Assembly (NCBI GenBank): GCA_026004015.1
Contig: BPIH01000002.1
Location: forward strand, 77,418 to 141,417
DNA length: 64,000 bases
From: Chloroflexota bacterium
GTDB lineage: Bacteria > Chloroflexota > Limnocylindria > Limnocylindrales > CSP1-4
Direction: 5' to 3'
The stretch's first letter is position 1. Every line of letters begins with the position of its first letter. The position numbers were made by a program, and so were the translations under genes. The notes beneath the pieces are model-generated. The model was not told the DNA's origin and made no database searches. It saw only the letters and a list, made by a program, of their open reading frames with translations. Of this stretch, positions 52,747-55,333 are shown in pieces.

Positions 52747-55333
52747 TCAGCGCGCCGACCGGGCGAGGTGGCGCTGCATGGCCGCCTTCCGGGAGAGGTT
52801 GATCCGGCCCTGGCGATCGATCTCGGTCACGACGACCATGATCTCGTCGCCGACGGAGACGACGTCCTCGACGGAGGGGACGTGGTAGTCGGCGAGCTCG
52901 CTGATCCGGACGAGCCCTTCCTTGCCGGGCAGGATCTCGACGAAGGCGCCGAAGCTCATGATCCGGGTCACCTTGCCGAGGTAGAGGCCCCCGACCTCGA
53001 CCTCCCGGGTCAGGGACTCGATCCACTGGATCGCCTTCCGGCTGTTCTCGGCGTTGACGGCCGCGATCTCGACGGTCCCGTCGTCCTGGACGTTGATCTC
53101 GGTTCCCGTCTCCTCCTGGATCTTGCGGATCGTCGCCCCGCCCTTGCCGATGATGTCGCGGATCTTCTCCGGGTTGATCTGGATCGTGATGATCCGCGGC
53201 GCGTAGCGGCTCATCTCGGTCCGCGGGGCCGGCATGACGGCGACCATCTTGTCGAGGATGAACTGGCGGGCGGCGTGGGCCTTGGCGAGCCCCTCGCGGA
53301 TGATCGCCTCGCCGATCCCCCGGACCTTGATGTCCATCTGGACGGCGGTGATCCCCTCGCGGGTCCCGGCCACCTTGAAGTCCATGTCCCCGAAGGCGTC
53401 TTCCTTGCCGAGGATGTCGGTGAGGACGACGAAGCGGCCGCTCGCCGGGTCGGTCATGAGGCCCATGGCCGCTCCGGCGACGGGTGCCTTGATCGGCACG
53501 CCGGCGTCCATGAGGGCGAGGCTCGAGCCGCAGGTCGAGGCCATCGAGGTCGAGCCGTTCGAGGTGACGATCTCCGACACGAGGCGGATGACGTACGGGA
53601 ACTCGTCCTGGGACGGCAGGACCGGCAGGAGGGCTCGCTCGGCGAGGTTGCCGTGGCCGATGTCGCGGCGGCTCGGACCTCGGAGCGGCTTGTTCTCGCC
53701 GGTGCTGTAGGGCGGGAAGTTGTAGTGGTGGAGGTAGCGCTTCTCGGTCTCGGGGCTGATCGTGTCGATCCGCTGGACGTCCGAGGACGGCCCGAGGGTG
53801 GCGATGGTCAGGGCCTGGGTCTGGCCGCGGGTGAAGAGGGCCGAGCCGTGGGCCCGCGGGAGGAGGCCGACCTCGATGGAGATGGGCCGGATCTCGTCGG
53901 GCGCCCGACCGTCCATCCGAATCCCCTCGTTCAGGGTCAGCTCGCGGACGACCTGCTTCTGGACGGTGGCGAAGAGGTTCTTGCCGACCCGGGCCTCGCG
54001 CCGAGCGGCTTCGAGGAGGGCCGCCGGGTCGCCGCCCGTCCGGTGGGCCCGGATGGCGGCCTGCGATCCCGTCTCGGAGCCGGGCGATCCGGGGTGGCAG
54101 GTCGGCCGCCAGGCGGAGGAGGATCTGGGCCGTCACCTCGGCGTCGGGAAGGGCCCGATGGCCGCCGACGGGGAGGCCGAAGAAGGCGGCCAGGTCGCCG
54201 AGCTTGAACGTCTCCGGCGCCCCGGGGAACGCCTCCCGGGCGATGACGAGGGTGTCGAGGTAGCGGCCGTACTCGAAGCGGAAGCCGTTGCCGAGGGCGG
54301 CCTCGAGGAAGGCGATGTCGAAGCCGACGTTGTGGCCGACGATGAGGGCGTCCCCGGCGAAGGCGAGGAACCGCTCGGCGGCCTCCCGTGGGCTCGGGGC
54401 GCCGCGGACGTCGGCGTCGGTGAGGCCGTGGAGCTGGGATCCGACGATGGGCCGGCCAGGGTCGACGAGGGTCGAGAAGCGGTCGACGATCTCGCCCCCC
54501 CGGACCCGGACGGCGCCGATCTCGACGAGGTCGTGGAGGGTGACGTCGGTCCCGGTCGTCTCGACGTCGACGACGACGAACTCCCTACCGGCCGCCACGG
54601 CGTCGACGAAGGTGAGGATCGAGCCGGTGCCGGGCTCGAGGTACGGGATCCGCTTCGGCTTGCCGACGGCCCGGACGAGCTCCTCCTGGACGTCGATGAG
54701 GGGCTGGAGGGCCCGGTGACCGAAGAGGATGGCCTCGGCCATGACGTCCTCGGGGACGATCTTCGCCCCGGCCTCGACCATCATGATGGCGTCGCGGGTG
54801 CCCGACACGACGAGGTCGATCTCCGAGTCCTCGAGCTGGCTGATCGTCGGGTTGATGACGAACTCGCCGCCGATCCGGCCGACCCGGACGGCCCCGACGG
54901 GCCCCAGGAAGGGGATCTCGCTGATCGACAGGGCGGCCGAGGCGGCGACGGTGCCGAGGATGTCGGGGTCGTTCTCCTGATCCGTCGAGAGGACGGTGAT
55001 GACGACCTGGACGTCGTCCCGGTAGCCCTCCGGGAAGAGGGGCCGGATCGGTCGGTCCGTCAGCCGGGCGGCGAGGATCGCTCCCTCCGAGGGTCGCGAT
55101 TCGCGCTTGATGAAGCCGCCCGGGATCTTGCCGGCGGCGTACATCCGCTCCTCGAAGTCGACGGTGAGGGGGAAGAAGTCGAGCCCCGGCCGGGGGTCGG
55201 AGCGGTTCGCCGTCCCGAGGACGACGGTATCGCCGTAGCGGACGGTGACCGAGCCGCCGGCGAGGAGGGCCATCTTGCCGGTCTCGATGGTGAGGGTCCG
55301 GCCGCCGATGGTCGTTTCGAATGTCTGTGACAC
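52747..55333 (-). CDS. pnp: Polynucleotide phosphorylase with an inserted DnaQ-like DEDDh 3'-5' exonuclease domain between RNase PH domain 1 and the helical domain (about 860 aa; frameshift near 54090)
   Basis: GTG start with a GGAGGA RBS. PH1 ([17 protein letters not shown]...[11 protein letters not shown]) runs in-frame into Exo [10 protein letters not shown], Exo [16 protein letters not shown] and Exo [12 protein letters not shown]. The helical domain, PH2 ([16 protein letters not shown]), KH ([10 protein letters not shown]) and S1 follow. Confidence 0.8.
54110..54615 (-). other. DEDDh (DnaQ/RNase T-like) exonuclease domain embedded within pnp
   Basis: All three exonuclease motifs, with the catalytic D, E, D, H and D residues present. 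No independent start codon or RBS, and the domain is contiguous with PNPase on both sides. Confidence 0.75.

Follow-up and report, generated by a model that had tools for sequence, protein, structure and literature searches.

Polynucleotide phosphorylase (PNPase) is among the most studied and most conserved enzymes of RNA decay, and its domain order is regarded as fixed. In the solved examples (Escherichia coli 3GCM/7OGK, Caulobacter crescentus 4AM3, Streptomyces antibioticus 1E3P and Staphylococcus aureus 5YJJ) a first RNase PH module (PH1) is followed by an alpha-helical linker, a second module (PH2), and the KH and S1 domains. In the torus the helical domain is found on the side away from S1/KH; it plays a part in activity and borders a pore leading to the active site (Nurmohamed et al. 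2009, PMC2723993). Hydrolytic partners have also been described: REXO2, acting in trans, removes the tetranucleotides that SUV3-PNPase leaves at the end and enhances its activity (PMC7261184), and RNase D belongs to the Caulobacter degradosome together with PNPase (PMC4245959). Here we analyse a PNPase gene, pnp, whose linker contains a DEDDh 3'-5' exonuclease domain. The gene, the single pnp of its Limnocylindria host, occupies positions 52747-55333, minus strand, of the window, i.e. the whole stretch of 64,000 nt taken from contig BPIH01000002.1 of a Chloroflexota bacterium (assembly GCA_026004015.1).

The gene shares with the solved enzymes the order PH1, linker, PH2, KH and S1, the rpsO-pnp operon and the phosphorolytic site; it differs in a DEDDh domain of about 160 residues within the linker, which no solved PNPase chain has (target lengths of 730 residues at most). 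It starts with GTG at 55333-55331, 11 nt downstream of a ribosome-binding site (GGAGGA, 55345-55350), and stops at 52749-52747, boundaries that a sequence-only reading of the window, made before any database search, had placed correctly. The product is 861 aa if base 54061 is skipped, close to the 860 or so that had been estimated; as deposited, a +1 insertion interrupts it. Over its full length the corrected product can be aligned with P0001 (861 aa, 97% identity), with the product of the related locus L002, from which it differs at 2 of 861 residues, and with more than 120 clusters whose proteins are about 860 aa long.

In the frame of position 55333, Pfam finds in order RNase_PH (PF01138, residues 11-141, 54911-55303, E=2.4e-24), the RNase_PH_C of the first PH module (PF03725, residues 144-208, 54710-54904, E=1.7e-17) and a complete RNase_T/DEDDh domain (PF00929, residues 253-405, 54119-54577), which matches profile positions 1-164 of 164 with 96.5 bits against a cut-off of 24 (E=3.3e-27). 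The continuation of PH1 into a complete DEDDh domain in one frame is far beyond chance, and the central claim of the sequence-only reading, a DnaQ-type domain embedded in PNPase with no start of its own, holds. The motifs it quoted are all present, at residues 224, 253 (VVVDVETTG), 330, 392 (HRALPDAEV) and 491. The adjacent frame supplies PH2 as a second PF01138 match (the phosphorolytic catalytic module, 53494-53895, E=4.1e-28), a second PF03725 match, KH (PF00013, 53017-53190, E=2.3e-13) and S1 (PF00575, 52786-53001, E=2.1e-19). Thus the RNase_PH, RNase_T, KH and S1 domains expected of the fusion were all recovered, while two parts of the expectation failed: the helical-linker profile PF03726 is matched at positions 55-80 only, with 21.8 bits, below its cut-off of 24.6, and the domains form a single polypeptide only after removal of one base.

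Family models identify the host enzyme as PNPase. P0001, standing in for the corrected window protein, scores 951 bits against TIGR03591 (cut-off 525) and 949 bits against NF008805 (cut-off 471). Identity to solved PNPases is 38-42%, with TM-scores up to 0.87 when normalised by the target and about 0.55 when normalised by the query. By every testable measure except an unbroken helical linker of about 80 aa the protein belongs to the PNPase family (TIGR03591/PRK11824), that is, a variant and not a non-member. The insert is in turn a bona fide epsilon-family DEDDh domain: it has the RNase H-like alpha/beta fold of the DnaQ superfamily, profile and fold searches agree on DEDDh as had been proposed, and it passes the TIGR00573 cut-off narrowly (72.9 against 71.5).

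In the alignment with E. coli PNPase, positions 11-250 pair with 9-247 and positions 290-695 with 446-854, and therefore about 160 residues have been inserted after the first linker helix. An AlphaFold2 model of the P0001 monomer (mean predicted local distance difference test score, pLDDT, of 76, rising to 86-97 over residues 250-470) gives the order in detail. The first linker helix (residues 237-247, 54593-54625), at the end of the E. coli alignment segment that runs to 250, stands just before the insert. The exonuclease beta-alpha-beta core is next, and is followed by an uninterrupted helix, 394-432, which runs from the Exo III helix into the linker as one continuous element. Helices 436-447 and 451-469 then lead to PH2. 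The remaining linker helices together cover residues 411-470 (53923-54103), span the frameshift and give the weak PF03726 match. A model of the domain on its own has the same arrangement (pLDDT 91). By alignment and model, then, the exonuclease domain is placed between helix 1 and helix 2 of the linker joining the PH modules, and it is predicted to be well folded and tied to the linker by one long continuous helix. This differs from the original proposal, in which the exonuclease domain lay ahead of an intact helical domain. Because the helical domain faces away from KH/S1 (PMC2723993), a PNPase trimer of this type would bear three exonuclease domains rigidly mounted on its distal face.

Both catalytic centres, the phosphorolytic site of PH2 and the five DEDDh residues, look intact and functional from their residues. 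In the metal-site motif DAFGDMDFK (53374-53400), D645, D651 and K653 correspond by alignment to D486, D492 and K494 of E. coli, and they are invariant, together with the GSTSMAS loop, in 120 clusters. Four of the DEDDh residues are likewise invariant, both in 64 species-level sequences and in 120 clusters: D256 and E258 of Exo I (54560-54568), D339 of Exo II (GHNVGFD, 54317-54319) and H392 of Exo III. The last motif (HRALPD, H392-x4-D397, 54143-54160), which defines the DEDDh type, ends with D397, present in 63 of the 64. The domain is clearly under purifying selection, though it evolves faster than the core: mean identity is 66% against 83-90%, and the ratio of non-synonymous to synonymous rates (dN/dS) is 0.09-0.21 against 0.02-0.06.

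The embedded domain is apparently active, judging from these residues. It could alternatively be catalytically silent and regulate the PNPase pore through a structural, oligomerising or nucleotide/RNA-binding function; the interrupted helical domain is known to affect both how active PNPase is and how its active site is reached (PMC2723993), and faster divergence than the core would be in keeping with such a role. However, the metal-binding and general-base residues, all five of them, are retained almost without exception across the sequences above, whereas their loss is usual in inactivated DEDD domains, and we regard silence as very improbable.

The fusion is a trait of a whole class of uncultured Chloroflexota (Limnocylindria) and is conserved across the clade. 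A protein search recovered more than 120 clusters with 78-97% identity, all of about 860 aa and all with PF00929 together with the PNPase domains (P0001-P0120); their source assemblies are from NCBI, JGI, ENA and Logan, and the names given to them are 'polyribonucleotide nucleotidyltransferase' and 'DNA polymerase III epsilon subunit family exonuclease'. At L001, L002, L004, L005 and L086 the gene is intact and again stands in an rpsO-pnp context. The insert segment was also scanned against one genome per GTDB species, giving 558 tblastn-confirmed stretches, of which the best 80 were checked for PNPase context and the rest may include other DnaQ-like genes. In all 80 of these best loci the exonuclease segment lies inside a full PNPase gene, in most of them (about 70) in a single reading frame. 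All 80 are metagenome-assembled genomes (MAGs) labelled Chloroflexota or, where classified further, Candidatus Limnocylindrales/Limnocylindria. In a library of 50%-identity representatives, the fusion collapses to one full-length member (P0123, 864 aa, beside rpsO) plus fragments, and the next matches have other architectures, which points to a single gain in one lineage.

Some near-identical fusions carry odd taxon labels, i.e. Acidimicrobiales, Candidatus Binatia, Candidatus Polarisedimenticolia and uncultured Anaerolineaceae (P0095, P0113, P0277, L013, L055, L058, L061; 72-80% identity). Mis-binning or mislabelling is a more likely cause than horizontal transfer.

An unusual architecture with a frameshift near the 3' boundary of the insert might suggest an assembly chimera, a mobile element or an intein-like insertion peculiar to this contig; nothing else does. 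The same insert stands at the same position in the independent NCBI, JGI, ENA and Logan assemblies and in every one of the best 80 related species-level genomes, no intein or transposase features are present, and GC content is continuous with the flanks. We give such an origin practically no credence, the clade-wide insert at one position having ruled out all three forms of it, including the chimera on which the sequence-only reading would have foundered. No description of a PNPase-DEDD/DnaQ fusion was found in the literature, only papers on the separate proteins, with subscription-only papers lying outside this coverage; that the architecture is not known from characterised PNPases, as had been supposed, is borne out to that extent. 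On that coverage, we read the PNPase with an embedded DEDDh domain as a previously undescribed PNPase variant, a domain fusion and not a new principle.

The window copy itself departs from its relatives by one base. PH1 and the exonuclease are read in the frame of 55333, while the end of the linker, PH2, its RNase_PH_C, KH and S1 occupy the neighbouring frame, where a stop stands at 54135-54133; contrary to the earlier view, the helical domain and PH2 are not in frame with what precedes them. The cause is one extra G at 54060/54061 (GATCGCA[G]GCCGCC) relative to both L002 and L001, where L002 has GCAGCC for GCAGGCC. Its removal restores a junction peptide identical to that of P0001. Uncorrected, the window gives PH1, the exonuclease and about 490 aa of Arg/Pro-rich out-of-frame text, open to 52589. 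The window as deposited encodes no single PNPase polypeptide, and the listed open reading frame (ORF) of 1088 aa is an artefact of its GC content of about 70%. That spurious ORF (52589-55855, minus) is one of three long ones overlapping pnp, the others being 52642-54207 (plus, 521 aa) and 53762-55330 (plus, 522 aa); stop codons are rare at such GC content, and ORF length is therefore no guide to coding here.

The extra G is most probably a consensus indel of the deposited MAG and not biology, because no decay is seen in the half beyond the shift and another conserved gene of the window has a frameshift as well. L002 is 98.4% identical at the nucleotide level over 8.3 kb, has an identical rpsO, and shows this G as the sole gap inside pnp. 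The corrected gene differs from it by 15 synonymous and 2 non-synonymous changes, of which 4 and 1 lie downstream of the shift, where dN/dS against three relatives is 0.02-0.04, as low as in the rest of the core. None of the other ten genes of the nusA-infB-rbfA-nrnA-truB-ribF-rpsO-pnp-asd array is broken. A frame-plot of GC at third codon positions over the whole window has exactly two same-strand frame changes without a nearby stop, one in pnp and one in the gene of a class A penicillin-binding protein. A programmed ribosomal frameshift at 54061 was considered too and is ruled out, since relatives both close and distant have this junction peptide within a single reading frame.

Many bacteria can do without PNPase, and the frameshift could be real; the gene would then be a pseudogene of very recent origin, or its only product would be PH1 and the exonuclease followed by a meaningless tail. 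The extra G does stand in the deposited assembly, where the 3' part (52747-53916, minus) was called separately as a 389-aa protein, GIW20187.1, 'hypothetical protein KatS3mg065_0483 [Chloroflexota bacterium]'; any error at this site has therefore entered the public databases. The MAG set moreover comes apparently from accurate PacBio HiFi reads, a link to the Katase hot-spring HiFi/metaFlye study (PMC9671151) made by the locus-tag prefix only, the tag being absent from the main text of that paper. Against a real lesion are the strong purifying selection downstream with no further damage, the intact remaining operon, and the penicillin-binding protein gene, whose shift within a G-rich run of the same 64 kb speaks for consensus errors. 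We judge a real frameshift to be quite improbable.

The second frameshifted gene (2118-4884, minus) encodes a GT51 glycosyltransferase plus transpeptidase and is shifted at about 4440-4460. One frame reads ...EDKTFWENVGFDPLGFVSAALDTLGR and then nonsense, and the next frame continues ...GGSTITQQLVRARLL..., with the shift in G runs (GGACGGGAGCGGGGCGG). Among the 80 related MAG loci, 7 have frameshifts elsewhere in the fusion gene. Frameshifted copies are common in MAGs, mostly in long-read 'MFD' assemblies (L010, L014, L027, L028, L029, L030; P0121, P0136, P0145, P0154), and some of their products are now 50%-identity cluster representatives with long Arg/Pro-rich out-of-frame stretches. Such representatives are database contamination typical of high-GC genomes.

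The affinities of the inserted domain bear on what it might act on. Its best solved sequence relatives are the exonuclease domain of Thermotoga PolC (2p1j, E=1.2e-27), followed by PolC, S. aureus DinG, DnaQ, a Cas2-DEDDh fusion and ExoX. The values listed for its relatives are 20.6 for PolC, 19.0 for epsilon, 18.5 for ExoX, 18.2 for DinG, 16.6 for ERI1, 16.5 for RNase T, 13.3 for REXO2 and 9.1 for Rrp6. The best NCBIfam domain match is PRK07883, an actinobacterial DnaQ plus UvrC-like family, whose proteins are of the Rv2191 type (PMC11348249). Among 50%-identity clusters, the nearest non-PNPase relatives (about 50% identity) have GIY-YIG/UVR, DinG helicase, BRCT or VRR-NUC modules as fusion partners. 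Given this set of PolC, epsilon, DinG, ExoX and repair-module fusions, the domain comes from an epsilon-like pool that usually serves DNA transactions. Membership of the Orn/REXO2 or RNase T subfamilies was considered and is ruled out, PolC, epsilon, DinG and ExoX being closer in sequence and structure comparisons.

We propose that, beside the phosphorolytic ring, the DEDDh domain hydrolyses single-stranded 3' ends with no need of phosphate, acting on short oligonucleotide remnants that PNPase cannot finish or on ends that are stalled or limited by phosphate, such that one polypeptide would combine phosphorolytic and hydrolytic 3'-5' activity. RNA would be the likelier substrate because the host enzyme is a PNPase. 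Chances are about even, in our estimate, that the domain is a hydrolytic RNA helper of the ring. The suggested role on nanoRNA or structured 3' ends is plausible at most, since the nearest relatives are exonucleases of DNA proofreading and repair.

Several points weigh against this proposal. By sequence affinity the relatives of the inserted domain are DNA enzymes. An NrnA-type DHH/DHHA1 gene lies three genes upstream in the same operon cluster, so that the cell probably has a nanoRNase already. Finally, in the window itself the fusion is broken in the deposited record, its 3' half annotated as the hypothetical protein GIW20187.1.

The same affinities make a serious rival of a role on DNA or RNA-DNA hybrids, i.e. 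DNA-end or R-loop processing akin to the moonlighting of PNPase in double-strand-break repair. The best sequence and structure matches (E=1e-27 for the PolC exonuclease domain), the UvrC-like PRK07883 family and the repair modules of the nearest relatives all favour it. In addition, the DinG exonuclease of Bacillus subtilis prefers single-stranded DNA and also degrades the RNA strand of hybrids (PMC12525004), and the PNPases of B. subtilis and E. coli take part in DNA repair (PMC2709576, PMC3241651, PMC5379764). The setting, however, is a housekeeping pnp in an rpsO-pnp operon with intact RNA-binding KH and S1 domains; tolerance of either sugar is frequent among DEDDh domains of this class, and no DNA-repair gene is consistently coupled to the fusion except a UDG-family gene two genes downstream. 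On this evidence we consider a DNA or R-loop role unlikely, and keep the RNA-helper role as the working proposal.

A stronger version of the RNA-helper proposal can be advanced tentatively. An active phosphorolytic ring with three rigid DEDDh hydrolases on its distal face might form a single-chain 'mini-exosome', degrading RNA fully to mononucleotides by both chemistries. The hydrolases would receive the leftover oligonucleotides of the ring or, under phosphate limitation, RNA that passes through the channel. Such an enzyme would replace a separate Orn-type enzyme, converging on the ring-plus-hydrolase logic of the eukaryotic exosome. We hold this to be possible, though doubtful.

The surroundings of the fusion are as follows. 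From 46422 to 63976 on the minus strand the gene order is ispG, nusA, infB, rbfA, DHH/DHHA1 (nrnA-like), truB, ribF, rpsO, pnp with the exonuclease, asd, UDG-family, rnj and ftsK, an order kept from ispG to ftsK in L001, L002 and L004; the nrnA-like gene and rnj do share the array, as the sequence-only reading had it. The usual upstream partner, rpsO (ribosomal protein S15, 55453-55722, minus), lies directly upstream of pnp. ribF is only 70% identical to its L001 counterpart, while its neighbours are 85-96% identical. At L001:4055-5953, the gene calls split infB into two directly adjoining genes (204 + 427 aa), while the window (61295-59439) reads through in one frame, which suggests a lesion or a gene-calling artefact of that assembly. 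The rpsO-pnp spacer contains, just past the rpsO stop, a perfect 11-bp GC-rich hairpin, GGACCUCGGGC-ACCG-GCCCGAGGUCC (55417-55440, minus), with no U tract. This could be an attenuator, or a processing site comparable to the one that RNase III cuts in the pnp leader of E. coli. The overall fold stability of the leader is unremarkable (z = -1.46), and an Rfam scan of 52000-56500 gave no match at E<=0.1.

A whole bacterial class, abundant in soils, fresh water and hot springs, thus has a DEDDh nuclease in the least understood part of PNPase, the linker beside the side pore. The architecture has been invisible in annotation because its proteins are labelled as plain PNPase or as 'DNA polymerase III epsilon family exonuclease', and frameshifted copies such as that of the window fill protein databases with Arg/Pro-rich junk. 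If the domain acts on RNA, phosphorolytic and hydrolytic 3'-5' decay would here be covalently coupled for the first time, and the fusion would offer a tractable model for the hand-over from a PH ring to a hydrolase, a problem solved in trans by exosome-Rrp44/Rrp6 and by PNPase-Orn/REXO2, as well as a natural test of helical-domain function. If instead its substrate is DNA or R-loops, the fusion would lend strong support, from comparison, to the debated role of PNPase in DNA repair.

Set beside known systems, the two halves of the protein each have familiar counterparts in an unfamiliar combination. The exonuclease domains of PolC, DnaQ (epsilon), DinG and ExoX act on DNA, either standing alone or joined to a DNA polymerase, helicase or repair module, whereas here the domain is embedded in an RNA-degrading phosphorylase, with no evident clamp- or polymerase-binding partner. 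Orn/REXO2 is a DEDDh hydrolase that finishes the 2-5-nt leftovers of PNPase, and the same job is proposed for the fused domain. The eukaryotic exosome, with Rrp44 and the DEDD enzyme Rrp6, and the Caulobacter degradosome, with PNPase and RNase D, likewise bring a PH-domain ring together with one or more hydrolytic 3'-5' exonucleases. The resemblance to exosome-Rrp6/Rrp44 is only an analogy and does not imply membership: in the exosome an inactive PH ring is served by separate, non-covalent hydrolases, whereas in the Limnocylindria protein the ring keeps its catalytic residues and the hydrolase is covalently inserted.

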